Sequence record: PQ462667.1
Length of the DNA: 64,000 nucleotides
DNA from: Escherichia phage HMD-P3
Strand: one strand, 5' to 3'
The notes under the pieces are model-generated. The model was not told the DNA's origin, did not search any database, and worked only from the letters and a program-made list of their open reading frames with translations. The stretch's first letter is position 1; each line of letters starts with the position of its first letter. A program made the position numbers and the translations under genes. Below are positions 2,080 through 63,980 of the stretch, piece after piece.

Positions 2080-4410
2080 TTAAATAGTACAACCACCGGA
2101 TGCACAACCGGCTGCTTCTTCTCCAGCACCTCCACCATTTGCGGTATTGAAGTTAGCATAATACCAAGTTTTCCACCCATACTTAACAGCAGTCATGAAA
2201 TCACGAACTACTACTGGGCCAGGAATGATTTCATTCTCAAACTTGGTGTAGTCATAGTACATATTCGTACTGATAGACTGACTGAAGAATTTCTGCATAG
2301 TTGCTACCCATTTGATCCACTCGATACGATCTACATCATAAGCCAGTTTATAGCTCATTAACGTTTCCCAATCGGTTGCGCCTGGAGCAATTGCAATTAC
2401 TTTATTTACTGCACTACCTTTAATAGATACAATCTTACGGGGTGGTTCGATAGAGTTAGTAACACCTAACAGAACAGAAGAACTTTCCCCTGGCATCTGA
2501 GCAGTCAGAACAGAGTTACGCATACCATATTTCAGAATATCTGCACGCAGAGACTCCCAATCCATTTCTAGACCTACGGATACCAGTTCATCAACAGTTT
2601 TCTTGTACGTGTCGATTACCAGAATTCCTTTAGATGGTTTAGTACGATCAAACCACTCACATGCACCCTGTTCTTTAGCTAGGCGTACAGAGGCTTTATG
2701 CAGGAAGTAAGACAGTTTTTCAGCTTCACGGTGAATCCAGTTACGGGCTTCAATACCTTCATAAGCCAGACCTTCTGCCGCCATTGCACCTGCTGCGTTC
2801 ATCAGGCCAATACCAACATTACGACGTTTCTTAGCCGTATATTCCATAGTTGGGAACGGATAATCCTGAATTTCAATAATTGTATCAACGAATTTCAGGA
2901 GGATGTAGCAAGTTTTTTCCCACTCAGCCAAAGATTCCATGCGCCCAAGTACAACACCACCTAAGTTACACAGAGATACTTCACCAATATCCTCCGGCTT
3001 CATTTGATCAAGCTGCTCTTTTGTCTTGTACAGCTCTGTAATGTGATGGAACGGGCGTGTAGGCTGAGTAATTTCAACACAAAGGTTTGTCATACGGATC
3101 GGATCAAGGAAGTTACCGTGACGATTAGATTCCCCGATGTGATGAGCATACATACGTCCTGTTTCCATTCGGATACGTAGCCAAGTATCTAGGATTTCTT
3201 TTGCAGAGACTTTAGGAGCTGCTGGAACTGTTTTTCCTTCGTGGTCGATCTTTGTAAGAGATGCCACACGTTTCTCCGCTGCCACGTAGATTTCTTCAAA
3301 TTTAGCCTCGTCATCACTATAAAACGCTTCATGAACTTCTGGAGCATAGAAGTATGACATTAGCGTAATATCTTCGTTTTTCAGATAACGTTTTAACAAA
3401 AGATTGTTGAAGCTCAGAGAGTAATCCATCTTATCGATTTTATTCTCATCTGTAGCACGTTGTTGCTTAACCTGCATCAATTGAATGATTTCAGGGTCGA
3501 AGTATGGATAAGACACTGTAGCAGAACCACCACGAGTTTGCTGAGTATTGGCCTTTACTGAGCGGTCAATGTGTCGATAATATGGCAGTTTTCCGGAATG
3601 CGGGAATGCCCCATTTCGCACCGGATCAGCAATTGATCGGCTTTCAAGATGATACCCGATTCCCGCTCTGGCTGCGACCATTTTGAAGACGATGTGCTCG
3701 GCGGTGTCGATTGAATCCAACGTGTCAGTGGAATCCACGAGGCAGCAACTAGCAAATCCACGGTCACTAGAGCGCAGACCAACCAGTGGCGGCGTAGGAA
3801 CGTTAATTTTGTGGAGCGACATTGCGTTGTAGAGGTCGATTGCATCTAGAATTGTCCAGTTAGGTTGAGATAGCATCGCCATTGCCATACCCATGTAGGC
3901 AAACTGCGGAGTTTCATAAATTTCACCAGTGGCTATGTTACGGCGGGAATACTTATCAAAGAACTGCTTCAGCCCACCACTAGTAAAAAGACGGTCACGA
4001 TCATGGTCGATAACCTGATTCAGAGCTTCAAATTGCTCATCGGTAATCCATGCACTCATGTCTTCCCATGCACCTACGCTAACCATATGGTCATGGAAGA
4101 AACGCAGAGAAGGCGGTTCGAAGGAATCATAAAGGCGTTTACGCATTTGCGCAAGACGTAATTCCTTTGCTGGCACATCATATGCTGGATTATCTTTGAT
4201 AAGACTTTCAGCAGCTTTAATTAATGCATCCATCAGAGTGTCGGAATCTACAACCCCTTTAGGCAGAGTTTTTTGAGCAGCCATAGTAATGGCTGACCAA
4301 CTTACATCAACTGTTTTGCAACCATACTCTGCCCAACCATTGATTTTTTCAGGAGCAAAGTCTTCTACAGTACCGTCACGTTTAATTACTTTTTCAATGC
4401 GATGGCTCAT
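2080..4410 (-). CDS. nrdA: ribonucleotide reductase class Ia alpha subunit
   Basis: Large ORF with ATP-cone-like N-terminus (HRIEKVIKRDGTVEDF) and catalytic NLCVEI motif. Start placed at ATG 4410 (RBS AAGGAAAG upstream) rather than the longest ORF start 4515. Confidence 0.88.
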   Translation of the reverse strand: MSHRIEKVIKRDGTVEDFAPEKINGWAEYGCKTVDVSWSAITMAAQKTLPKGVVDSDTLMDALIKAAESLIKDNPAYDVPAKELRLAQMRKRLYDSFEPPSLRFFHDHMVSVGAWEDMSAWITDEQFEALNQVIDHDRDRLFTSGGLKQFFDKYSRRNIATGEIYETPQFAYMGMAMAMLSQPNWTILDAIDLYNAMSLHKINVPTPPLVGLRSSDRGFASCCLVDSTDTLDSIDTAEHIVFKMVAARAGIGYHLESRSIADPVRNGAFPHSGKLPYYRHIDRSVKANTQQTRGGSATVSYPYFDPEIIQLMQVKQQRATDENKIDKMDYSLSFNNLLLKRYLKNEDITLMSYFYAPEVHEAFYSDDEAKFEEIYVAAEKRVASLTKIDHEGKTVPAAPKVSAKEILDTWLRIRMETGRMYAHHIGESNRHGNFLDPIRMTNLCVEITQPTRPFHHITELYKTKEQLDQMKPEDIGEVSLCNLGGVVLGRMESLAEWEKTCYILLKFVDTIIEIQDYPFPTMEYTAKKRRNVGIGLMNAAGAMAAEGLAYEGIEARNWIHREAEKLSYFLHKASVRLAKEQGACEWFDRTKPSKGILVIDTYKKTVDELVSVGLEMDWESLRADILKYGMRNSVLTAQMPGESSSVLLGVTNSIEPPRKIVSIKGSAVNKVIAIAPGATDWETLMSYKLAYDVDRIEWIKWVATMQKFFSQSISTNMYYDYTKFENEIIPGPVVVRDFMTAVKYGWKTWYYANFNTANGGGAGEEAAGCASGGCTI

Positions 4411-5530: not shown

Positions 5531-5824
5531 AAATAACACTCCTATAGTGTACTTCGCTAACAGAGGATCAACAAAAAGATCTTGTTTATCAACTTACAAA
5601 TATATTATACCAATATATACAGTAAAAAGCAACTACAATTTTAAATAAGCCTATGATATTGCATTTAAATAAAAAATTTGCTTGCTTTTAACGTGAGATG
5701 TGTGATACTAGATAATCATTTTATATCGCGTGCACGAGTGCGTGATTATACAATTTTTAATAGAGATTGGCAAATAAAATTTTTTGACTCAGATCATGTT
5801 ACAGAACTTTATAGTAAAATATTG

Positions 5825-5853
5825 TTGACATCCGCCCTCGAATGAGTTATAAT
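5825..5853 (+). promoter_or_regulatory. sigma70-type promoter with perfect consensus (TTGACA, 17 bp, TATAAT) upstream of nrdD
   Basis: TTGACA at 5825..5830, 17-nt spacer, TATAAT at 5848..5853, AAGGAGAG RBS, ATG at 5883. Confidence 0.7.
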
Positions 5854-5882
5854 AGTAGTCTTAGTTAGAGAAGGAGAGTATA

Positions 5883-7757
5883 ATGAATCGCAATGAAGAA
5901 CTAAAGTATAAAGAAATGCAGGCGTTAATTAGAAACTGCAAAGAGATTATCGAAGGGTCAGCAGATGAAGAGCTGCTGTTTAATAATGCTAATAAACCCT
6001 CAGAACGTTTCCCTACACAAAGGGATATGCTTGCAGGTGAATTGAGTAAGTATCTGATTCTAGAAGAAATGCCAATTCAGATTCGAAATGCTCATATGAT
6101 TGGGGATATTCATTTCCATGATGCTGATTATGCTGCATTAGGCATGACTAACTGTTGTCTGGTAGCTCTGGAAGATATGCTGAAGAATGGTATGAAGGTT
6201 GGTAATGCTGAAATTAGCACTCCAAACTCTATCACTACTGCGGCGGCTATTACTGCTCAGATTATCACTCAGGTTAGCTCTCATCAGTATGGTGGTACTT
6301 CTGTAGATCGCCTTGATGAAGTATTAGCCCCTTATGTTCGTAAATCCTATGACAAAAATCATGCGTTTGCAAAACGTTGGACTAAGGATGAAGCCAAAGC
6401 ATCAGTAATGGCTACGGAGATGACTGAAAAGGAAGTCTATGATGCCTGTCAGGGTCTAGAGTATGAAATCAATACGATGTTCAACTCTAACGGTCAGAGT
6501 CCATTTATTACCTTTGGTTTTGGTCTAGGAACTTCTTGGGAAGCACGTCTAGTACAGAAAGCAATACTGAAAGTACGCATGGATGGTTTAGGTATCAATA
6601 AACGTACAGCTATCTTCCCGAAACTGGTATTTGTACTTCGTGATGGAGTAAATATGAAACCAGGAGATGTTAATTATGACATCAAGAAGTTAGCTATGAA
6701 ATGTACTGCTGAACGTATGTATCCAGACTATATCAGCTATGATAAGGTTGTGGAAGTTACTGGGGACTACAAAGTTTCTATGGGTTGTCGTTCATTCCTA
6801 GCTGCTACAGAAGATGGTGAAACTGCCGGTCGTAATAACTTAGGTGTTGTTTCTGTAAACTTGCCTAGAATTGCTATCGAAGCTGAAGGAAATATTGACC
6901 TATTCTTTGATTTGCTTGAGCTACGTGTAGATACAGCGTTAAAAGCGTTGGAGTGGAGAGTTGATCGCTTAAAATACATTCAAGCTAAAGCTGCACCCAT
7001 CCTGTATATGTCAGGAGCCTTTGGACTGCGCTTGGAGCCTGATGAATATGTATTCGATCATTTCTATAACCGTGCTTCTGTATCTCTAGGGTATATTGGT
7101 TGCCATGAAATGCTACAGTTTATGTTTGGCAAAGATGTAGACACAATGTCCGAGACCTGCATCAAGTTTGTTCAGCGTGTATTGCAGTACATGCGGGATA
7201 GAGTCGATCAGAAGAAGGAAGAAACTAAATTAGGTTATAGCCTGTATGCTACACCATCAGAATCCCTATGTGACCGTTTTTGTCGTCTAGACCGTGAATA
7301 TTTCCCAGAGCATGAAGATATTCTGTCCAAAGGATACTACACTAACTCGCACCACCTTGATGTAGAACGTAAAGTTGCTCCCAATGTGAAATTTGATTAT
7401 GAATCTAACTTTACTCCGATTGCTTCTGGTGGGTGCATTTCCTATGTAGAACTACCGGATATGAAACGATTCCCAGATGCACTGGAATGGGTTATTAATT
7501 ATGCTGCTAGTAAGGTTCATTACTTCGGTATTAATACCCCAGTGGATTCTTGTGGTAAATGTGGATTCTTAGGTGAAACAATAGCATCCGAAGATGGATT
7601 TAAGTGCCCTATCTGTGGTAATCATGACCCCGAAACTCTTGAAGTAACTCGTCGAGTTTGTGGGTATCTTGGAAATCCGGGTGCTCGTCCATTTAACCCC
7701 GGCAAACAGCACGAGGTGATGGGCAGAGTGAAGCATCAGGATATTCGAGCTAAGTAA
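5883..7757 (+). CDS. nrdD: anaerobic ribonucleoside-triphosphate reductase (class III)
   Basis: 624 aa; C-terminal glycyl-radical motif RVCGYLG and zinc ribbon CGKCG...CPICG. Confidence 0.9.
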   Translation: MNRNEELKYKEMQALIRNCKEIIEGSADEELLFNNANKPSERFPTQRDMLAGELSKYLILEEMPIQIRNAHMIGDIHFHDADYAALGMTNCCLVALEDMLKNGMKVGNAEISTPNSITTAAAITAQIITQVSSHQYGGTSVDRLDEVLAPYVRKSYDKNHAFAKRWTKDEAKASVMATEMTEKEVYDACQGLEYEINTMFNSNGQSPFITFGFGLGTSWEARLVQKAILKVRMDGLGINKRTAIFPKLVFVLRDGVNMKPGDVNYDIKKLAMKCTAERMYPDYISYDKVVEVTGDYKVSMGCRSFLAATEDGETAGRNNLGVVSVNLPRIAIEAEGNIDLFFDLLELRVDTALKALEWRVDRLKYIQAKAAPILYMSGAFGLRLEPDEYVFDHFYNRASVSLGYIGCHEMLQFMFGKDVDTMSETCIKFVQRVLQYMRDRVDQKKEETKLGYSLYATPSESLCDRFCRLDREYFPEHEDILSKGYYTNSHHLDVERKVAPNVKFDYESNFTPIASGGCISYVELPDMKRFPDALEWVINYAASKVHYFGINTPVDSCGKCGFLGETIASEDGFKCPICGNHDPETLEVTRRVCGYLGNPGARPFNPGKQHEVMGRVKHQDIRAK

Positions 7758-7856: not shown

Positions 7857-8237
7857 ATGGAATTAAAGCCCTATATAGTTGAATCTACATGTGGTAGTTT
7901 CCATCTGGGTGTGGATAATATTGCTGAGGCTGTCTTTGCTGCTACAGGTGATTACTCGCATATAGAGGGTGTTGCATACCCTACCATTATTGGCGATTGG
8001 GTGGGAACAAATCTAGATGTATCGCCTTATAACCCATATTGCTTGTTTGATGAAGACAGAGATGAAGTAAAATGTAATCTTGAATTTGTGTATAATAGAG
8101 TGTTAAAAGTGTACCAACGTAGCCCCAATGGGTACGAAGATATTACTTGGAGTATTAAACAGTATCTTAAAGATATATACTCTAGTTTTTCTGACGAAGA
8201 CCTAGAAACAGTTGCAGTGGAGTTTAATAATGACTAA
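7857..8237 (+). CDS. hypothetical early protein (126 aa)
   Basis: ORF directly behind promoter and GAGGAG RBS; no recognisable motif. Confidence 0.6.
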   Translation: MELKPYIVESTCGSFHLGVDNIAEAVFAATGDYSHIEGVAYPTIIGDWVGTNLDVSPYNPYCLFDEDRDEVKCNLEFVYNRVLKVYQRSPNGYEDITWSIKQYLKDIYSSFSDEDLETVAVEFNND

Positions 8238-32414: not shown

Positions 32415-32449
32415 CCCAATGGACAAAATCCATTGGGGTTTTCTTTTAT
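32415..32449. terminator. bidirectional rho-independent terminator between convergent early (+) and late (-) units
   Basis: 10-bp stem CCCCAATGGA / TCCATTGGGG with loop CAAAA, A-run upstream and T-run downstream. Confidence 0.75.
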
Positions 32450-34602
32450 TGTGATACTAGTTGTACCTTTAATTGCTCAAGCTCTTTCTCCAGATCTTCA
32501 ATCCTTTTAATAAGATCTTGCACAACATGCATAGTGTCAAGAAGCATTGGAGTTGTATCTAATTCCTTTTGTTCCTGCTCTACTCCGTCATCATTATAGA
32601 ATCTTCTGGTCTTTACATAGAGGGGCTCTATAGTCTCTACTTGCTGCGCAATAACCCCACGTCGGATACGAGATTTTTCATCGTTATTATATATAAAGGA
32701 CTGGAATTCTAATCCTTTTAATACCTCGATGGACTTAGTTGCATCTATAGCTTTAATATCATGCTTTAAACGAGAATCAGATATAGCATTTAACTGCAGA
32801 GTATACGTTGCTGCGCCATTGGGCCACCAAGAATAGAAATAAATACTATTATTGTTTGGCTGAATTTTTAAACGTACACCATATTTGTTATCCGCGTCTC
32901 CCGATACGTGCCAGCAAGAATCAGCAAAGGAACCCAAGTCATTATGAATTAATCCAAAATGTGCAGATGTTTTATACCCCGCAGTAGAATACTGGGAACC
33001 ACTCAAAATACTATTAAAATTAAATGTACTGCCTATATTCGCTTCGCTCTGAGAAAAAGTACCTTGTACCCAGCCTGTCTGAGACCACGCCATACCAGTT
33101 ACTAGTCTAGCTTCAAAACGATCCGCTACAAAATTCCCAGTATCTACAAGCTGGGCGGAACTCGATTTACCAGTAGATTTATTTTCTATTAGTAGCTCAG
33201 TAGAGTAGTTGCCATCAATAGTAGCTTTAGCACGTAATGTACTTACAGCTTCACTACTAGTACCTACTTTATACTCAGATAGTACACTCCCGCCATAAAC
33301 AGTAGTACTAGCAGAAGGTTTGACAGCATCGCCATTAATGACACTCCACGAGGTATTCGCAGCCACGAATCCACCAGAAGCACGGATTACCCATACACCG
33401 ACAAAGTTTCGTGTAAGGATTTCGTCCTGTGCTGCACCGTAGATAGGGCTTGAGTGTGAGGCGTCAAAATTTAATGTATTATAGCGCCCAGTTAATGCAA
33501 TATTTCCTGTACTGGGGATCGCATCCCCATCCCCATTAGGAAAAATCCCATTATTAACAAAGAATGCACCGGCAGCAGCAGACCCAAATACCTGAGCGTA
33601 GCTAGTACTTGAGTAGCTAGGAACAGTACCTGTTATATTAGGCGCAGCTGATTCAAATAGCTGACCATTTGCACTACTATTCCCACCATCACCACGACCG
33701 TAAAGAGCACGTATTGATCCTTGTTGCACACCGTTCCGATCTGGCACACGGAAAGTAGTTGTGCCATCACCCAAGGAGTATCTGCCACGCTGAAATTTAT
33801 CTGCTAACCAAACTGAATCATCTATGGCCCCAACCATTTGTGCATATGCCCAAAGTTCAGGCCAATCAGCCCTATTAAGGAGCTGTCCGTCAGAAACGAC
33901 TTCGTATGGCTGAATATACGCACGACTATCTCGGAGGTGAAAATCACCAACACCGTAGTTCATAACACCATTCATGGTAGGTCCAACTGTACCAGTGTTA
34001 ATCTTATTCTCTACCCAACGCTTAGTAACAGCATCATAATCATTAACGGGATCTCCAGCAAGTGGAGTAGACCCAATAGGGCGTACATTTAGCCACGCAG
34101 CGGCTCGGTCTGCTAAATCTGATAAATTATTTTCAGATAATAGACTTTCGTCTTTTGTTGGCACATTATAACTTTGTCTAAAAGCTTCTTTTGATACTAC
34201 TCCAGTACCTCCTTGTTCTATAGAAAGTGCAGTGGTTAAACCTGTTAAAGATTTAATAGTTGAGTTGGCACCATCCATGTCTATACTAGCAAATCTTGAC
34301 CATGCAGTCCATGAATTGTAAAAAGATCTACTATATATCTCATTACTATTATAAGGTAAGTAAATTTGAGTACAAGAAGTTGATAAACTGCTTGCATTAT
34401 TTTTTAAGACTAGTAATGTACCTGCAGCTGCAACAGGATAGTTAAGAGAAGTAGGAGAGTTAGCATTTCCAGATTGCCAGTACTTTCCATACACCCTTCC
34501 ATCAAGTGTATTTAAATCTGTTCCTGCAGTAATTAAACCATATACAGGTAATGCGGCTACATCAGTAGCCTTTAAGTTAATTTTATCAATTCTAAGAGCC
34601 AT
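32446..34602 (-). CDS. tail fibre protein with C-terminal intramolecular chaperone (peptidase S74-like) domain
   Basis: 718 aa, Gly/Ser/Thr-rich beta-structure-like body; C-terminal SDSRLKHDIKAID...GVIAQQVE block typical of auto-cleaving chaperone domains of phage fibres. Confidence 0.75.
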   Translation of the reverse strand: MALRIDKINLKATDVAALPVYGLITAGTDLNTLDGRVYGKYWQSGNANSPTSLNYPVAAAGTLLVLKNNASSLSTSCTQIYLPYNSNEIYSRSFYNSWTAWSRFASIDMDGANSTIKSLTGLTTALSIEQGGTGVVSKEAFRQSYNVPTKDESLLSENNLSDLADRAAAWLNVRPIGSTPLAGDPVNDYDAVTKRWVENKINTGTVGPTMNGVMNYGVGDFHLRDSRAYIQPYEVVSDGQLLNRADWPELWAYAQMVGAIDDSVWLADKFQRGRYSLGDGTTTFRVPDRNGVQQGSIRALYGRGDGGNSSANGQLFESAAPNITGTVPSYSSTSYAQVFGSAAAGAFFVNNGIFPNGDGDAIPSTGNIALTGRYNTLNFDASHSSPIYGAAQDEILTRNFVGVWVIRASGGFVAANTSWSVINGDAVKPSASTTVYGGSVLSEYKVGTSSEAVSTLRAKATIDGNYSTELLIENKSTGKSSSAQLVDTGNFVADRFEARLVTGMAWSQTGWVQGTFSQSEANIGSTFNFNSILSGSQYSTAGYKTSAHFGLIHNDLGSFADSCWHVSGDADNKYGVRLKIQPNNNSIYFYSWWPNGAATYTLQLNAISDSRLKHDIKAIDATKSIEVLKGLEFQSFIYNNDEKSRIRRGVIAQQVETIEPLYVKTRRFYNDDGVEQEQKELDTTPMLLDTMHVVQDLIKRIEDLEKELEQLKVQLVSQ

Positions 34603-34962: not shown

Positions 34963-36168
34963 TTACCGTAAGCCATTAATCTGATCATTATTTAAGGCCC
35001 TATACCATACTCGGAAATTCTTAATATGATATACAAATTTAGAAACGGTATAAGGTGGTGGTGTACCTAACCTAGACGGAGTACCTGTCAAACTCACGGG
35101 AGTACTAGTAGATTTAGCAGTTTTACCATTAAAATAGTTGCTTATTTCATCTCCAACTATTTTTTGGACATAGGTCATAGGAGGTAAACTTTCTATATCT
35201 GGAATAGATAAGGTTGGCCCACCACTAGATCTATATGTTATTATAGTGGCACTATCACTGCTATTACAGCGGCAGATAATGTCATTCCTAGAGCCTCTTA
35301 CTTGCATAACTTCTACATAACTAGTATAAGGCCGTACTTTACAATTAAATTCAAAAGATACTGTACGCTCAAAGTAGTCCGCTAGGGTTCTATAGCCGGC
35401 ATTATCTGGTATACACCACCATTCATCTGCTGTTCTAGTAGTAGTGGTATCAGTGCTATTACGGATGTAAGAAGTTGGAGCTATGCCTTCCTCAACCTGT
35501 ATACCCCAGATGTAGAAACCAGAAACACCATCCCCCGGATAGACGGTAACACCAGTAGTTTTAGCCATCTGGAGTCTAAATATAGTATCTTTACTTGTAG
35601 TGGCAGCAAAAGAAAGCCAAATTCTATATATACCTCCAGTTAGTCTCTCATATCCCCCTCTAATATTACTAGCAGAACCACTTGTAGTAACAGTTTCATT
35701 TTTAATATCAAAAAACATGCCCGCTGTTGTACCGGAAGCTACACGTAGGTATACTAAACGATTTGCAGTATCATCTTTAACATAAGCAGAATAGCAATAA
35801 AAAGTATCAGCAGTCAAAGATATAAATTTATCTTTGGAATAATGCTCGCTGTCATTGGTATTCTCGGTAAACTTAGTCATTAACATTTCGCCAGTCGGAC
35901 AAGCCGAAGCATTAGGAGTTGTAATAACTGTACTACTTCCAGTAATTTCTTCTGAATTAGTATATAAATTAGTGCACTGGGACTCCATTAATAAACCTTG
36001 CTTTTCAAATCTAGGTTCATTAATATCTGCAAAACACATTTTACCACTTTTATCTATATAACTGGCGGTAGTTGAGCGAGTAAAATTTGCAGATTTTGTT
36101 GGTAATTCCAGAGTTACATCATTAATTGTTGCTAAATCGTAAGGGGCCATACCAGATAATAATCTCAT
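34963..36168 (-). CDS. lateral tail fibre protein, C-terminal (distal, probably receptor-binding) segment; ORF artificially separated from 36390..37058
   Basis: The reading frame is actually open upstream to 36384 without a start codon and continues the Ala-rich heptad repeats of the upstream ORF. Confidence 0.6.
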   Translation of the reverse strand: MRLLSGMAPYDLATINDVTLELPTKSANFTRSTTASYIDKSGKMCFADINEPRFEKQGLLMESQCTNLYTNSEEITGSSTVITTPNASACPTGEMLMTKFTENTNDSEHYSKDKFISLTADTFYCYSAYVKDDTANRLVYLRVASGTTAGMFFDIKNETVTTSGSASNIRGGYERLTGGIYRIWLSFAATTSKDTIFRLQMAKTTGVTVYPGDGVSGFYIWGIQVEEGIAPTSYIRNSTDTTTTRTADEWWCIPDNAGYRTLADYFERTVSFEFNCKVRPYTSYVEVMQVRGSRNDIICRCNSSDSATIITYRSSGGPTLSIPDIESLPPMTYVQKIVGDEISNYFNGKTAKSTSTPVSLTGTPSRLGTPPPYTVSKFVYHIKNFRVWYRALNNDQINGLR

Positions 36169-36389
36169 ATCATCAGTTAAAGGTACCCAAACATCCGGAT
36201 AGGGGACAGGTTCATATATAATAATACTAGCAGCAGAGGCAGCAGCAGCGGCTTCAGAAGCTTTAGCATTAATTTCAGAAGCTTTAGCATTAGTCTCTGA
36301 AGCTTTAGCATTAGTCTCAGAAGTTTTTGCTGCTGTTTGTGAAGCTGCTGCTGCATTTTTACTTGCTAATGCATCAGCGGCACTTCAAT

Positions 36390-37058
36390 TTAATGATACG
36401 GCGACCACCGAGATCTACACCTGAGGAAACACTCTTTCCCTACACGACGCTCTTCCGATCTAGCTGCCGCTAATTCGGAAGCTTTAGCATTAGTTTCAGA
36501 AGTCTTAGCATTAGTCTCAGAAGTTTTTGCTGCTGTTTGTGAAGCTGCTGCTGCATTTTTACTTGCTAATGCATTAGTCTCACTAGTTTTAGCATTAGTC
36601 TCGGAGGCTTTAGCTTTTGTTTCACTAGTCTTAGCATTAGTTTCTGATACTTTTGCATTAGTCTCTGAGGTTTTAGCCTTAGTTTCACTAGCTTTCGCAT
36701 TAGTCTCAGATACTTTAGCTGCTGCGGCTGATTCTGCAGATCTATCCGCTGATGCAGCAGATTGAGTAGCAGATGTAGCGGACTGAGTAGCAGAAGTTTC
36801 AGAAGCTCCAGCAGAAATAGCTGCTTCCTGTTCAGAGTTCTTAGCGTTAAGCTCCGAAGTTTTAGCCGCTATCTCAGAATCTTTTGCAGCTGCAGCAGAC
36901 TTAGCTGCTGCTTCAATAGAAGATACTAACTCACTTGCAGTAATAGAGCTAATAGAATTACCTAGAGTTACTGTATATCTAGGAAACTTACTAGCAGTAG
37001 CTTTAGTATCATCAATATTTAATATTTGTTGTACAATAATTTTAGTAGTTACTGCCAT
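36390..37058 (-). CDS. lateral tail fibre protein, N-terminal segment; C-terminal 20-odd residues are translated adapter
   Basis: Ala-rich repeats (SETNAKTSETKAK...); ORF ends ...SEERRVGKECFLRCRSRWSPYH, which is the reverse-complement translation of the adapter at 36392..36461. Confidence 0.6.
   Translation of the reverse strand: MAVTTKIIVQQILNIDDTKATASKFPRYTVTLGNSISSITASELVSSIEAAAKSAAAAKDSEIAAKTSELNAKNSEQEAAISAGASETSATQSATSATQSAASADRSAESAAAAKVSETNAKASETKAKTSETNAKVSETNAKTSETKAKASETNAKTSETNALASKNAAAASQTAAKTSETNAKTSETNAKASELAAARSEERRVGKECFLRCRSRWSPYH
36392..36461. other. embedded Illumina universal (P5) adapter sequence - assembly/library artefact
   Basis: AATGATACGGCGACCACCGAGATCTACAC + 8-nt index CTGAGGAA + ACACTCTTTCCCTACACGACGCTCTTCCGATCT, read directly from the sequence. 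Confidence 0.97.
36470..36760. repeat. tandem 21-bp coding repeats (heptad repeats of the fibre shaft)
   Basis: Successive 21-nt units of the form GCTTTAGCATTAGTCTCAGAA encoding (S/T)ETNAK(A/T) repeats on the minus strand. Confidence 0.7.
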
Positions 37059-37480
37059 TATTTAGTTACCCCATCACTGATAAATACTTTACCCTCCATT
37101 ATACGAAAGGAGCTAATTGCAGATCCTATAATATCTCTAGTCATAATTATATCATAGTATCCCGCAAATCTCTGACGAGGATTATATTTATCTCTATCTT
37201 TAGATGCCTTAGCTCCTATATTTTCCACAGATTCTACTGGCAAACTTATAGCTACAGCCCCCTGAGCAGCATCAATAATATTAGTAGTAAAGGATGCTAA
37301 TATCTCCGCATTCTCATCTAGGCTATTTTTTATAGTACCCCTTAGAGAGTACCCAGTTAAGTTAACAGGGGTATTTGTAGGTGGATAAGTACTATCATCA
37401 ACATCTAAGAACTGCATCATTAAACCATAAGGTACTTTTTCATCTATTACTAAGTCTATAACTCTATTTTCAGTACTCAT
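37058..37480 (-). CDS. collar / fibre-attachment protein (T5 p132-like)
   Basis: 140 aa ORF directly upstream of the fibre genes and downstream of the pb4-like gene; assignment by size and synteny only. Confidence 0.55.
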
Positions 37481-37483
37481 TAT

Positions 37484-39556
37484 TTACCTTATATGAATGT
37501 ACCCGTTTTGCAGGTCTATCTTCATTCTGTAATAGGCTTCCGGGTTAGATGATAGTGCGGCCGCACGATCATATATAATATTCACACCAATTTGAGATAA
37601 GAAAGCATTACCAGCAACTATTTTACTAGCGGTTACAGTACCATTAACTATCATATCTCCGTGTAAGACCATAGCAGGACTAACCCATGCCGAACCATTC
37701 CATTGTCTAGTAAATGCTGTTTGCGGAGCATTACTATTAAACTCAGTTAATACATCGTATTTAACAGGTGGGGAACCAAAATTACTTTGGAAGAAGGAGT
37801 TAGCACGACTATCGTCCCATCCTCCTAATCCGGCCACTCCAAGAGAATACATGCCCGGGCCTCTCTGGCCATCCGCACCAATAGTACCTTCAGTACCACT
37901 CCACTGAACAACGTCTGCCCAGCTAGTACCTTCTAGTAACTTATTAGTAACAGGGTCTAGAGTACCAGTTGTAGCATAAATATTCTGAGTCATATCAGTA
38001 CGGTTAGGCGGTGTTTTAGACCAGCCAGGTGGTGGGTAATCCTGCTCCAATGGTTTTGCTGGTAAACTTTTACCAAGTTTATAAACAAATACTGTTTGTT
38101 TACCTTGCATACCAGTTCCAATATCTACGTCACCATTAGGAGTTCCAATAACAACCCCGCTAGAAATACGAAGAGTATCCCCATCATAACGTATCCACTG
38201 AGTAGCATTACCTATATCTAACTTTGGCTTAGCAGAAGTGTTATCCATTCCCATCCAGATACCAGATTTTGTATCTCCCCAAGTTTTACCTTGAGTATAG
38301 ATTGCCGGATTATCTTGGCCAGTTAGATTAGTCATTACAAAGTTAGCAGCATTGATAGTTTTAGTTATAACACTACCATCAACGTTAACTATCTTTTTAA
38401 TAGGATCGAAAGATATTGGTGCTTTTCCTTCGGCATCTAGGAGGCCTATATTAATAGCACCAGTAGTAGCATCGATTAAAAATGTTTGCTTCCACGTGGA
38501 GCCATCTTTAATCTTACCTTTAATATACGCATAGTTTACTTCTATACCAGTTTCATTAACAAAACTATTGTCAAGAGGGGTATCCTCATTTAGTATAAAA
38601 GTCTGTACTACAGAATCTGTTACATCTTGAGCATTTGGCCCCCACGCTATAGAGGAGACTTTAAATTTATGCTCAATTTTCCACGGGAACGATATAATAG
38701 TTGCCGCTTGTGCAGCACCTACGTTAATTTTTTGGGCCTTAGTCCATCCAGTTCTTGCAAATTCTGCGGAGTCTATATAAGACACGACAAATTCACGAAC
38801 ATTTGCTCCAGATCCCTTATTCCAATCCCATTGCACACGTAAATCATAACGTTCTTTACCATCTGCAATTCTTGCAGCCTTGAAGGTAATATTGCTAGGA
38901 GCAGTGGGTGGTACAAAGTTATATTCTACAGTAAGAAATTTAGAAAACTCAAAGTATCCAGAGGAATCTACAGTTACACCATCAGGCATAGTAACTTGCC
39001 CTGATATACGTACTTTATAATCTCCAATAGGAACACCACCAAATCTAATAGTCGGAGATAGTGGGCCTATATAATACTTTATCCATGGGCTATTTGAAGG
39101 TTGAGTACTTTTTAACTCAATAGTACAATAACTAGCTTCTCCTGTAGTTTCTATAACTACTATAGGAGCACCTACGCCCACATCTACTGGATCAGCTTCT
39201 GATCTAGCGGCAGTAATAATAGGTTTTCTCTTAGTACTAAAGGTAGTTTTATTGGATAAGTTTATACCAATTTTAGCCTCTAGTAATTCAGAATCTATAA
39301 TAGAATCATAAAAAGCCCCTTGAACTTCATAAGAGGTTGAAGGGGTTAGATTATTAATCATTACGAAGAAAGTATCTATACCAGTATAATCACGTCTATC
39401 TATACTTTCTCCTAACTTTAGCCAAAAAGATCTACCAATAACATCATAGTCAGTATATATAGAGTGCTGGACATACGCCATTGTATATCCAGTCATTATA
39501 CTATTTAAGACCATTTTGGCTGGTGCATTATTCGAAATCATTAAATGGATGCCCAC
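37484..39556 (-). CDS. baseplate / central fibre protein (T5 pb4-like)
   Basis: 690 aa, beta-rich; position after the pb3-like gene; T5 pb4 is about 688 aa as I recall. Confidence 0.6.
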   Translation of the reverse strand: MGIHLMISNNAPAKMVLNSIMTGYTMAYVQHSIYTDYDVIGRSFWLKLGESIDRRDYTGIDTFFVMINNLTPSTSYEVQGAFYDSIIDSELLEAKIGINLSNKTTFSTKRKPIITAARSEADPVDVGVGAPIVVIETTGEASYCTIELKSTQPSNSPWIKYYIGPLSPTIRFGGVPIGDYKVRISGQVTMPDGVTVDSSGYFEFSKFLTVEYNFVPPTAPSNITFKAARIADGKERYDLRVQWDWNKGSGANVREFVVSYIDSAEFARTGWTKAQKINVGAAQAATIISFPWKIEHKFKVSSIAWGPNAQDVTDSVVQTFILNEDTPLDNSFVNETGIEVNYAYIKGKIKDGSTWKQTFLIDATTGAINIGLLDAEGKAPISFDPIKKIVNVDGSVITKTINAANFVMTNLTGQDNPAIYTQGKTWGDTKSGIWMGMDNTSAKPKLDIGNATQWIRYDGDTLRISSGVVIGTPNGDVDIGTGMQGKQTVFVYKLGKSLPAKPLEQDYPPPGWSKTPPNRTDMTQNIYATTGTLDPVTNKLLEGTSWADVVQWSGTEGTIGADGQRGPGMYSLGVAGLGGWDDSRANSFFQSNFGSPPVKYDVLTEFNSNAPQTAFTRQWNGSAWVSPAMVLHGDMIVNGTVTASKIVAGNAFLSQIGVNIIYDRAAALSSNPEAYYRMKIDLQNGYIHIR

Positions 39557-43110: not shown

Positions 43111-46100
43111 TTAAGAATTTCCTAATGTTTTCAGACTAGCACCGTTCTCATTCAGAGCTAATTCTACTGCGTCTCTCAGAGCACCACTATTACTAGAAGC
43201 AAACTCTCTAAAACTTGCAGCATCCATAGCACTAATATTCAGGATGATAGGTCTTCCTGAAGTTGAGTTAGATGAAGTTTTTAGCTCATCATTAGGTGTA
43301 GATTTCATAGGAACCATAGGGGTAACTACTTCTGTACCATGTTCACCCATTTGATAACTAACCCCAGGGTACATATTACCACCCTCAGCACGAGGAACGA
43401 AAGAATTAGCACCACCTATACCTTTATCGCCTCTGATATAAGATAATTCACCAGCATTAGCAGACATAGACACATCTATATTCTTCTGACGCTCTCCTAA
43501 GGTTAGGTAACTAGTTGTATTTGCTCCAGAATCCACAGAGGGTATAGAGGATGCACCAGAAGCAGCGGCTAAGGATAGTGCGCCTGCAGCAGCCGCAGTG
43601 GCCATCATCGTTAACCCTAATGGTAAGAACGGACGGGTAGCTGCAGCGTTCATCATAGCTACGGCTGTAGATATGATTATTTGCTTTTTAGCTTCTCGCT
43701 GTTGTATCTTAGTCTTTTCTGCCTCCAACTTCTTGATTTTAGCTTTAGATTCCTCAGACTTACCATCACGCTTCTGTTCTGCTGCAATAGCCTGGTCTAT
43801 TGCACTTATTTGCTGGTTAGCGGAATATGCCATCATCTGTCCCACCATCTGCATACCTGCAGATATGGTTGTTATACTATCCAAGCTATCTTGTGCATTA
43901 GCCACCACTGCTAAGGAGAAATTACCTATGCTGTTAGCCAATGCTGTAGAAGCAGAATCCACTTCTGACATCTTAGCTATAGCCTGATCATACATAGACA
44001 TTCTATTCTCAAAATCAGCAAACTCCTTATCAGCACCAGATAATCCATAGGTAGGAGTGAAGGTACCCCCTAGTGAGGATACGACTGATTTGTACTTTTG
44101 ATCCTCTCTTTGCTTTTTAAGCTGTTCTAAGGCTGCTGAAGTTTTATAAATCTCATTACGATATTTAATTTCTTCTTCAGTATTATCTTTAGACAGCTCC
44201 AGCTGCTGCTGCAGAATAGATAACCTTTCAGTGAGAATCTGTGACTGACCAGTGACATTTCTCTGCGTTTGGCTAACCTCTAAGGCATCCATAAGGGCGG
44301 ATACATGAGTAGCAGTAGCTTGCTTTTCTGCTTCCCACTTCTCTCTCTCTAGCTGTGCCTGTGCACGTCTAGATTGTTCCAGTTTAACCTGGCTATCAGC
44401 CTGTTTAGCGTATAGCTTAGTTTTTTTCCCCTCTAACTCTAGTTCAAGATCTAACTGTGCTAGACGATACTGAGTATCAGTCATAGTACGGTTATTTAAA
44501 AGGGCTATTTCTTCGTCAATGCCAAGAATTTTATCTGTTTGATCCTTAACCTTTTTAGCGGTTTCAAATCCTTGAGCTTTAGTGTTGAGAATTTCCGTTT
44601 CTATTTTAGCTACTTGTTTTAATGCTTCAGGATCATTTGGATTTATAGCTAATAGTGTTTTTGCTGCACTAAGCTGTTCCTGTTGTTGACGCAGTAATAC
44701 TTCCCTAGCTGCTGCCTCTGCCTTAGCCTTGTCCTTAGTCTGAGCGTAAACCTCATCCTTACGTTTAGCTACCTCTAGTGCATTCTGCTCAGTTTTATCC
44801 ATAGCAGTTACATATTCTGCTAGGCCTTTCTGAGCATTCTTAATTTGATCTAGGCTTGTGAAACCTAGATTTAGATCCTTAACTAGAGTATCTGCACTTT
44901 GCCCAGTTATTTTAGAAGTATCTTCTATTGCCTTTACAACACTGTTTAGGTCACTAGAGGCTTTCTTAGCGTTAGTAATACTACTTGCCGCCATTTTTAT
45001 GTTATTTGCAGTATCACTAGAACTTTTCTTCAGGAAGTCAAAGTTCTTCTGTATCTCTGCGGCAGCTTTGAGGTTCTTAGGATCAATTTCGAATACTCCT
45101 TTTTCTCCCGGGATAGCAGTGGCAGCATACTTCATTTTAGCTCCTAACTGCTCAGCCAGATTGCCATTACGTAACAGAGCTTCCCCGGTATCCTGTACCG
45201 CCTGTCTTAGAACCTTCTCGGTTTTGGCTCGTTCTTCTATTTCTTTGTTTTGACGAGCCAACTCATTAGTAAGCTGTACTACTAACAGATTACTCTCATC
45301 TGTAGGAAGACCACCAAAAGCAGTCAATGCATTGACAAAAGGAGCAGTAAATGATTGTTTTGCTTTAATATCATCCAATTGCTGTTTAATCTCTTGAGCT
45401 TTCTTAATACGTTCTTCACTTTCTTTAAGATATGTATCTAGGTCTTCTTGAGCCCCTACAGCATTCCCTATTAAAGCTGTAACGTTTTCAGATGGAGTAA
45501 TTTTAGCGGATGCACTACGTGCCATTGCAGAAACTCTTGATTGAGAAGCCTTAGTTTGGTATAAGAAAGTATTAAGTGTATCCATAACAGGATTTAAGTA
45601 TGTAGCAGCACTTTGTTGTAAACTTCTTAGAGCTGAGTTAGCATTGGCAGCAAATTGTTCCCAAGAGGTTGCCTTAAGAGCATCATCCAGGTATCCAAAT
45701 CTACGAGTAGACTCTGCAATAACCTCATTTGCATATGCTTGTTGTCTCTGGTAGGTAGTCAGGCTATCTACAGTATATTTAATGCCGGTACTAGTAGCAT
45801 TTAACTGTTTAACATAATTTGCATACGCATCGTTAAGACGAATAGTAACACCAAGTTCATCCAGAAGTTCAATTTCTTGTTTTGATACACCCTTAATTAC
45901 ACGGTTAAGTGCATCAGTCATATCAACACCAAGAACAGCAGCAGCACGACGTGCTACTAAACCAAACTGCTCCAATTGTTCACTGTCAAATCCATAAGCG
46001 GAAGCAGTAGATGCTTGGCGCATAGCTTCTTCAAAGGATATAGCACCATTAGTAGCGTTTTGTAGTGATAAAGCTAGTGTCTGTACAGGTGTACCTGTTA

Positions 46101-47691: not shown

Positions 47692-48587
47692 TTTTTAATT
47701 TCTCCAAAGAAATCTATTCTCACTGGGTCTGAAGAAGCAGTAGGTATAATATCCCACTCAACTCTATACACATCTGAGAACTCTAGGCGTTTTGTAATAC
47801 GTGCTGAAGGAAAATCTATAGAAATATTATTATTTCTTATCGTTAAAGGTACATCTATCTCCGGTTCTATATTATAAACCATATCTCCTGCAAAACGTTT
47901 TAAGTAGTACAGAGAAATGGTTGCCGAAGCATTCATTTCAGTTACATAGGCTCTTTTATTATTATAAATTTTATTTATATCAAAAACACTCTTATCCTCT
48001 CTCCAGGAGCACTGCTGTTGGAAAGATAAAGAGGCAGAAATAAGACCGGGTAAGATGCTGCCATTAGTAGAAGCTATTACTGGGCTGTAAGACATTACTT
48101 CACCCTGTATAATAGAAGCTGCTTCTCTATACGTAGATACTTCTGAGAATTTCCCAGACTCAATACCAACATTAAGAATTGGTATATTCTTATCTAAAGA
48201 AAAATCTACCGTAGATACATAGCAGTTTTCAAAATATACACAGTTATTATCTTTATTTACTATATAGATATTGAACATAATAGGTTCAATATTACTACTA
48301 TATAGTGGTAGTAAGAAAGTATTACCTTTTCTATCAAAACCTAACCATTCAAAGAAGTTAGCCTCAGTAAGAGTATTACTGAAATTTACTGCTAGAGAGA
48401 TAGAAGAGGGGGTTTGAGCATTTATAATAGAGTCTGCATAGTTAGTTCTACGATGAACAGTCCTACGAAGAGTCTTGAATTCCTCGTAGGAAGTCTGTAT
48501 ATCATAGTTTGATAGGGCATCAAAATGAAATGCCCTACCATCATACTCAACTATAACTTTTGACTCTCTCATTAGAGAGTAATACAT
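47688..48587 (-). CDS. tail collar protein (T5 p140-like)
   Basis: 299 aa ORF directly downstream of the tail tube gene; by synteny. Confidence 0.5.
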   Translation of the reverse strand: MYYSLMRESKVIVEYDGRAFHFDALSNYDIQTSYEEFKTLRRTVHRRTNYADSIINAQTPSSISLAVNFSNTLTEANFFEWLGFDRKGNTFLLPLYSSNIEPIMFNIYIVNKDNNCVYFENCYVSTVDFSLDKNIPILNVGIESGKFSEVSTYREAASIIQGEVMSYSPVIASTNGSILPGLISASLSFQQQCSWREDKSVFDINKIYNNKRAYVTEMNASATISLYYLKRFAGDMVYNIEPEIDVPLTIRNNNISIDFPSARITKRLEFSDVYRVEWDIIPTASSDPVRIDFFGEIKK

Positions 48588-60396: not shown

Positions 60397-60500
60397 TGGG
60401 AGTAATAATTATTATTTTATTAGTTGTGATAATTCTAGGGCAGTGTGTCTTGGATAACCACTTAGCTCGTATTGAACGTAAGCTACGGGAATATAAATAA
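60396..60500 (+). CDS. small membrane peptide (34 aa), not in the supplied ORF track
   Basis: ATG overlaps the upstream stop (TAATG); translates to MGVIIIILLVVIILGQCVLDNHLARIERKLREYK; its stop overlaps the next ATG (TAATG). Confidence 0.4.
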   Translation: MGVIIIILLVVIILGQCVLDNHLARIERKLREYK

Positions 60501-60745
60501 TGTTTAGTATTGTAATTGCTTTTATTATCGGGATACTCGCGGGAGTTTTCGGGACGACTGCGGTAATCAACAAGCATCGTAAATATATTGCGGGGGTGAC
60601 GCGGGAGATTGCGGAAAGGGAGCGGAAGTTTGACGAGAAACGTGCGGAGTTTGAGCGGGAGTGGTCAGATGGATCTCGGGCGTCGCGGAAGAGATTCCGT
60701 GAGTTTAGACCAGAACACAGGTTTGATGACCCTTCTATGCGCTAA
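60500..60745 (+). CDS. small membrane protein (81 aa, N-terminal TM helix, charged C-terminus), GC-rich codons
   Basis: MFSIVIAFIIGILAGVFGTTAV then Arg/Glu-rich tail; G/C-ending codons unlike the rest of the window. Confidence 0.45.
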   Translation: MFSIVIAFIIGILAGVFGTTAVINKHRKYIAGVTREIAERERKFDEKRAEFEREWSDGSRASRKRFREFRPEHRFDDPSMR

Positions 60746-60896
60746 TTTGACTTTTGCCAAATTTCATAAGATTACACATGGAGGTGTGTCCAGTGGCCTC
60801 CCAGATGAGAATGAGTCTCGTTACCGCCCGGTACTTAGCAGACTAATAGTCACGGCATGTTATCATTGCACACCGTGACTATTTCAATTTTAATTA

Positions 60897-63833: not shown

Positions 63834-63936
63834 AATAATAAAACACCATTAAAGAGATTAAAAAACGTTTGTTATTGGCAATATAGCAAAATATAACGCC
63901 TCGAATAAAAGGAGTAATAATTTGCAACATTAAGAA

Positions 63937-63980
63937 CGGAAGAGCACACGTCTGAACTCCAGTCACAGGACAGACTCTCG
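63937..63980. other. Illumina index-adapter remnant at the right edge - artefact
   Basis: CGGAAGAGCACACGTCTGAACTCCAGTCAC followed by an 8-nt index-like AGGACAGA and CTCTCG; ORF 63784..63966 (MTGVQTCALPF...) is its translation. Confidence 0.9.

Follow-up and report, generated by a model that had tools for sequence, protein, structure and literature searches.

The record of Escherichia phage HMD-P3 (PQ462667.1) carries an Illumina sequencing adapter inside a tail fibre gene and presents that gene as two separate open reading frames. We analyzed a stretch of 64,000 nt from this record, referred to here as the window, and hold with high confidence that it contains a short-read assembly artefact in a Tequintavirus gene for a lateral tail fibre of the LtfA type, in which the adapter and five further nucleotides have taken the place of approximately 169 nt of real sequence. 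This reading is carried by the identity of the adapter, the collinearity of both flanks with intact homologs, a deficit of 169 nt at the junction, and a native triple repeat, each of which was observed directly. The finding brings no biological novelty; its value is that of a quality-control flag and of a warning against an intuitive, incorrect repair.

A sequencing adapter within a split fibre gene

The damaged gene is made up of the following segments.

34963..36386, minus strand: genuine 3' part of the fibre gene, 1424 nt including the stop codon (ungapped blastn, frame analysis)
36387..36391, strand n/a: AATTT, neither phage nor adapter sequence, where homologs carry CAGCT (alignments and junction coordinates)
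36392..36461, plus strand: complete Illumina TruSeq P5/universal adapter, comprising the 29-nt P5 sequence, an 8-nt index (CTGAGGAA) and the 33-nt Read-1 primer site
36462..37058, minus strand: genuine 5' part of the same gene, 597 nt or 199 codons, ending ...SELAAA at a codon boundary (ungapped blastn; phrog_5481 and phrog_1419 tail fibre N-terminus)

On the plus strand, positions 36392..36461 read AATGATACGGCGACCACCGAGATCTACAC followed by CTGAGGAA and ACACTCTTTCCCTACACGACGCTCTTCCGATCT, an exact match over 70 of 70 nt to the TruSeq P5/universal adapter, just as the original prediction had proposed for an adapter with an 8-nt index at this site. A match of this kind is expected approximately 6e-33 times by chance in the window and arose in none of 100 shuffles. 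The insert side lies to the right of the adapter, which in the sense of the gene reads as Read-2 read-through (AGATCGGAAGAGCGTCGTGTAGGGAAAGAGTGT...), and the AATTT to its left is possibly post-adapter read junk. As the adapter is synthetic, the junction is the product of mis-assembly, and a real biological feature is ruled out. Mismatch-tolerant scans of the window revealed no adapter copies beyond this one and a second site at 63933. A 13-nt Nextera-like match at 47765, returned by an exact 12-mer scan, was judged to be due to chance, approximately two such 12-mer matches being expected.

Reading of the frames on either side accounts for the two ORFs that are found at this locus. The minus-strand ORF at 36390..37058 encodes 222 aa and runs through ...SELAAA into RSEERRVGKECFLRCRSRWSPYH*, so that its final 23 aa are encoded by the adapter; the expectation that this upstream ORF would end in translated adapter was thus correct. 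The first two nucleotides of the 3' part complete a Gly codon and precede SAADALASKN..., and frame analysis found the frame of this part to be free of stops up to 36384, again as anticipated; the TGA that closes this frame is composed of two genuine bases (36385-36386) and one base of junk. The called ORF at 34963..36168 (401 aa) is simply a fragment of the 3' part that starts at an internal ATG. Because both pieces match phrog_1419 at consecutive profile positions (58-267 for the 5' piece and 347-790 for the 3' piece), each ORF represents part of a single LtfA-type gene, as had been suggested; the homologs are single proteins of 729 aa. Excision of just the 75 nt of adapter and junk was tried and rejected, for the gene stays out of frame with 27 stops, and sequence must therefore be missing at the junction.

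Deficit at the junction and the native repeat units

In order to establish what is missing, we relied on three independent intact genes, each of 2190 nt (729 aa): that of Escherichia phage IME178, a Tequintavirus (QYC97257), and those of two metagenomic homologs, P0001 and P0002, which were found by protein search and whose DNA comes from independent MEGAHIT metagenome contigs. IME178 carries the gene uninterrupted at the damaged locus. The 5' part of the gene in the window (36462..37058) aligns by blastn, without gaps, to gene positions 1-597 of P0001, P0002, and IME178 (96.1%, 94.6%, and 90.6% identity, respectively), and the 3' part (34963..36386) aligns, again without gaps, to positions 767-2190 (95.2%, 94.7%, and 92.5%). 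Since the flanks map in this way, the 70 nt of adapter and 5 nt of junk stand in for 169 nt of real sequence, namely gene positions 598-766, which are absent from the window; the lengths sum exactly (597 + 169 + 1424 = 2190). The window and the three references share the order of the locus (pb4, LtfC-like, fibre gene, 101-aa ORF, 718-aa S74 fibre, dUTPase), 91-96% nucleotide identity, collinearity of both flanks, and the same repeat architecture, and differ in that the window lacks positions 598-766 and has an adapter there.

Whole-window synteny leads to the same deficit. The window is collinear with IME178 from 36,003 to 100,614, and it is IME178 positions 72163-72331 that are missing at the junction, again 169 nt; the synteny offset changes by 95 nt across the junction, close to the net loss of 94 nt (169-75). 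Four stretches of the otherwise collinear window (7859-8236, 32697-33333, 44059-45544, and 60413-60757) have no IME178 alignment of at least 300 nt. These are presumably indels or mosaic cassettes, and a search for adapter sequence within the four found none.

The reading frames demand a gap whose length is 3n+1, which 169 satisfies, and filling the gap with the corresponding segment of either P0001 or P0002 yields a stop-free ORF of 729 aa that, outside the fill, is identical to P0001 at 641 of 672 residues and to P0002 at 632 of 672. In addition, the phage AZ21, a relative that is 95% identical in this stretch, has 70 nt of genuine sequence past the junction, matching IME178. Judged from these alignments, the restored fibre protein most likely has 729 aa rather than approximately 630 aa. 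In the homolog P0008 (666 aa) the landmarks on either side of the gap are just 64 nt apart, and on that pattern the gap in this phage could be 64 nt instead of 169 nt.

The junction falls within a repetitive part of the gene, the relevant features of which are these.

36253..36719, minus strand: 21-nt (7-aa, SETNAK[A/T]-type) tandem repeat array in the Ala-rich shaft (TRF period 21, 3.6 + 11.7 copies)
36305..36374, minus strand: native repeat unit copy 3, gene positions 779-848, identical at 70/70 nt to the P0002 unit at 779
36505..36574, minus strand: native repeat unit copy 1, gene positions 485-554, encoding ..ALASKNAAAASQTAAKTSETNAK, identical at 70/70 nt to the P0002 unit at 485

The original prediction had described two exact copies of a 64-nt sequence offset by 200 nt. 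An exact repeat at that offset is real, though it spans 70 nt and not 64 (36305..36374 = 36505..36574) and lies inside a 111-nt stretch of 92% identity. TRF reported periods of 42 and 63 for the array in addition to 21. In intact genes the 70-nt unit recurs three times in near-identical form, once every 147 nt, so that units 1 and 3 are normally separated by 294 nt: P0002 has them at positions 485 (70/70), 632 (67/70), and 779 (70/70), P0001 has them at the same positions (68, 62, and 67 of 70), and in IME178 units 1 and 2 pass a threshold of 60/70, the third being more diverged. The window retains units 1 and 3, and the middle unit lies within the missing segment. Unit 1 is flanked by TSETN before and TSETNAKASELAAA after, whereas unit 3 has GSAAD before, as in all 729-aa homologs, and ASETNAKASEINAK after. 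As the flanks of each copy match different positions in intact homologs, the copies are not an artefactual duplication, and the claim of a 200-bp duplication does not stand: both copies, together with their distinct flanks, have counterparts at 485 and 779 of P0002, and a third unit is present at 632.

Origin of the artefact and competing explanations

How the record came to have this structure can be read in part from the position of the adapter relative to the repeat units, and we infer from it the order of the assembler events and the manner in which the ends were fused. Short-read assembly fails at 36253..36719 on account of the 21-nt tandem repeat array located there, and the assembler would have been unable to cross the three near-identical 70-nt units of the heptad-repeat shaft. 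A contig approaching from the 5' side of the gene would have extended 43 nt past unit 1, at which point Read-2 of a short insert would have led into untrimmed P5 adapter; the contig from the 3' side begins 12 nt before unit 3. The two contig ends would then have been fused with neither trimming nor Ns, which is why the adapter stands inside the record; that the contigs are correctly ordered and oriented follows from the synteny with IME178, which continues through both junctions. The join introduces a frameshift and stops, leading gene callers to report a 222-aa protein and a 401-aa fragment with an internal start instead of one fibre of approximately 729 aa. One observation speaks against so tidy an account: AATTT alone separates the left contig from the 5' end of the adapter, an arrangement that corresponds to no normal read structure.

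The second adapter lies at the end of the window.

63933..63966, plus strand: TruSeq Read-2 read-through AGATCGGAAGAGCACACGTCTGAACTCCAGTCAC (33/34), followed by an index-like octamer (AGGACAGA) and a degenerate P7-like tail to 64000

Homology to all T5-like relatives (395 records) ends at 63931-63933, where this adapter sits, and the adapter marks another contig end or join. Neither CTGAGGAA nor AGGACAGA corresponded to the index of any kit in the sources consulted. The breakpoint is in unique sequence, with no repeat there to account for a contig end. A less probable reading is that the adapter marks a fixed physical end of the DNA, such as a site-specific nick of the T5 type. In the terminal-repeat/first-step-transfer region, where the break falls, its neighbours are the gene for A1 (DNA transfer protein) on one side and a gene for a small membrane protein on the other. 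With outward-facing P5 and P7 adapters at its ends, the segment 36392..63966 would approximate a single contig of ~27.6 kb built from untrimmed reads. The presence of the second adapter means that untrimmed reads went into the assembly of the entire record, which needs to be assembled anew.

Under the interpretation advanced in the original prediction, the phage truly has a single unit, the assembler made a second copy of ~200 nt around a read containing adapter, and the true gene encodes 631 aa. We consider this very improbable for the phage at hand, even though deletion of 200 nt does create a stop-free ORF of 631 aa and single-unit homologs of 630 and 631 aa exist (P0005 and P0007), the former on a continuous Logan contig of 111,864 nt, which makes a short natural form plausible in other phages. 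What decides the matter is the sequence that adjoins the adapter. The 43 nt at 36462-36504, which encode TSETNAKASELAAA, and the 12 nt at 36375-36386, which encode (G)SAAD, are both genuine and correspond to 555-597 and 767-778 of the gene, respectively, positions that are found in long forms only; because the SELAAA- and GSAAD-coding sequences both adjoin the adapter, a single-unit genome is excluded for the window. Moreover, the offset of 200 nt equals 294 - 169 + 75 exactly and is a coincidence. Restoration of the frame by removal of 200 nt is non-discriminating, the frame being restored because both units share a codon phase. Of the repair that had been put forward, the promise of one stop-free ORF holds, but the repair deletes 55 nt (43 + 12) of genuine sequence beside the adapter, that is, the segments encoding ...TSETNAKASELAAA- and GSAAD, and the predicted length of ~630 aa is not supported. 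We rejected it on the grounds that, although in frame, it removes genuine flanking sequence. Deletion of the supposed duplicate would give a plausible, wrong protein of 631 aa, short of ~98 aa of shaft.

A chimeric library molecule (insert-adapter-insert), or a population of mixed fibre lengths merged during assembly, might also be envisaged, in which case the dominant genome perhaps encodes neither a 729-aa nor a 631-aa fibre. Variants in fibre gene length are indeed common in databases (729, 680, 666, 631, 630, 520, and 519 aa among homologs P0001-P0011), in-frame recombination and changes in repeat copy at ltf loci arise during laboratory passage (PMC4728585), and the phage DNA meets the 5' end of the adapter with just five odd bases between. 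However, both flanks are ordered, oriented, and in register as they would be in one 2190-nt gene, and the second adapter-marked break suggests a general problem of untrimmed reads and not one chimeric molecule. We give this possibility slightly less weight still than the single-unit interpretation, and favor an assembly artefact in which the adapter and 5 nt replace a segment of an otherwise collinear gene.

Contamination of microbial assemblies and genome databases with adapter sequence has been documented (PMC11536531), and we found the same P5 adapter in 24 of 50,697 deposited phage genomes, mostly less than 100 nt from the end of the record, which is the signature of a contig end. A few internal copies were also seen, for example in Acinetobacter phage TAC1 (22631), Paenibacillus phage Pd_22F (49355), and Escherichia phage vB_EcoM_01 (101933). 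The case described here resembles TruSeq contamination at contig ends (PMC11536531) in that the adapter is exact and faces outward, as for short-insert read-through, with an adapter of the opposite type 27.6 kb away; it differs in that the adapter is internal, replaces coding sequence, and generates two false ORFs.

Nor is this the only record that is damaged at the repeat array. The RefSeq genome of fp01 (NC_048731) has an N-run and a split gene at the same array (4279-4321 region), and the 'complete' records of AZ21 (LC788708) and AZ23 (LC788707) stop inside it, within ~90 nt of the junction in the window (AZ23 16 nt before it and AZ21 70 nt after it). As at least three other Tequintavirus genomes are damaged in this way (fp01, AZ21, and AZ23), comparisons of fibre length within the clade should not rest solely on short-read assemblies.

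Reading the sequences of the homologs places their length differences in the Ala-rich heptad-repeat block. These differences could reflect natural in-frame recombination, assembly collapse, or both. Experiments have documented both altered repeat copy and in-frame deletions by recombination at ltf loci (PMC4728585), and because of this, and because the gene for P0005 is on a continuous contig, some of the short forms may be natural. A tentative extension of this idea, to which we assign somewhat less than an even chance, is that the array is a natural hotspot of in-frame recombination at which the shaft changes in steps of 49 aa, such that the forms in databases are real and tune the reach of the fibre.

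Identity of the damaged gene and its locus

The genes that surround the damaged one were assigned as follows.

32446..34602, strand n/a: second fibre of 718 aa with a Peptidase_S74 chaperone domain (PF13884)
37058..37480, strand n/a: LtfC-like collar protein (PF23926 LtfC)
37484..39556, strand n/a: pb4 straight fibre, a single 690-aa ORF with four PB4 Pfam domains (PF24168, Fn3_PB4)

The genes are thus arranged in the order pb4, LtfC-like, damaged fibre gene, 101-aa ORF, and 718-aa fibre. The N-terminal piece of the fibre matches phrog_5481 (6.5e-77) and phrog_24369 (4e-54, aa 1-196), and at the nucleotide level positions 36571-37100 of the window are at least 90% identical to the 5' ends of many Tequintavirus genes annotated as encoding an 'L-shaped tail fiber protein'. 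Its C-terminal part (34966..36384, minus strand) matches the NF048003 'phage head spike fiber' domain and, weakly, a LamG-like one. When Peptidase_S74 was sought in this 473-aa piece there was no match, only NF048003 and the weak LamG. The locus position and N-terminus mark the damaged gene as that of an LtfA-type Tequintavirus lateral tail fibre, and as S74 has no match in its C-terminal piece, it would not be an orthologue of DT57C LtfA.

An arrangement of two genes, ltfA and ltfB, has been described in DT57C, DT571/2, SPC35, and others (PMC4728585). Like the branched LtfA/LtfB fibres of DT57C and DT571/2 (PMC4728585; structure in PMC10713586), the locus in the window has two fibre genes downstream of an LtfC-like collar protein, the first with an N-terminal attachment region common to T5 Ltf/pb1 and the second with Peptidase_S74. 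In contrast, DT57C LtfA carries a C-terminal Peptidase_S74 autocleaving chaperone (PMC4728585), a comparison made here by description, whereas the first gene in the window is without S74, has NF048003 and the weak LamG match in its C-terminal part, and is separated from the second fibre gene by a 101-aa ORF.

Homology and annotation point to the damaged gene as a putative host-range determinant. The record mis-annotates it as two proteins, and the 23-aa tail encoded by the adapter will spread into protein databases.

Outside the T5-like phages, the nearest relatives of the C-terminal part of the fibre are Leclercia proteins of ~555 aa, with ~50% identity, a likeness that suggests modular exchange of the receptor-binding part. 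Upstream of the fibre gene, pb4 is annotated in IME178 (5681-7739) as a pair of overlapping CDS, in contrast to the one 690-aa ORF of the window (37484..39556); the split in IME178 is probably a frameshift error in that record.
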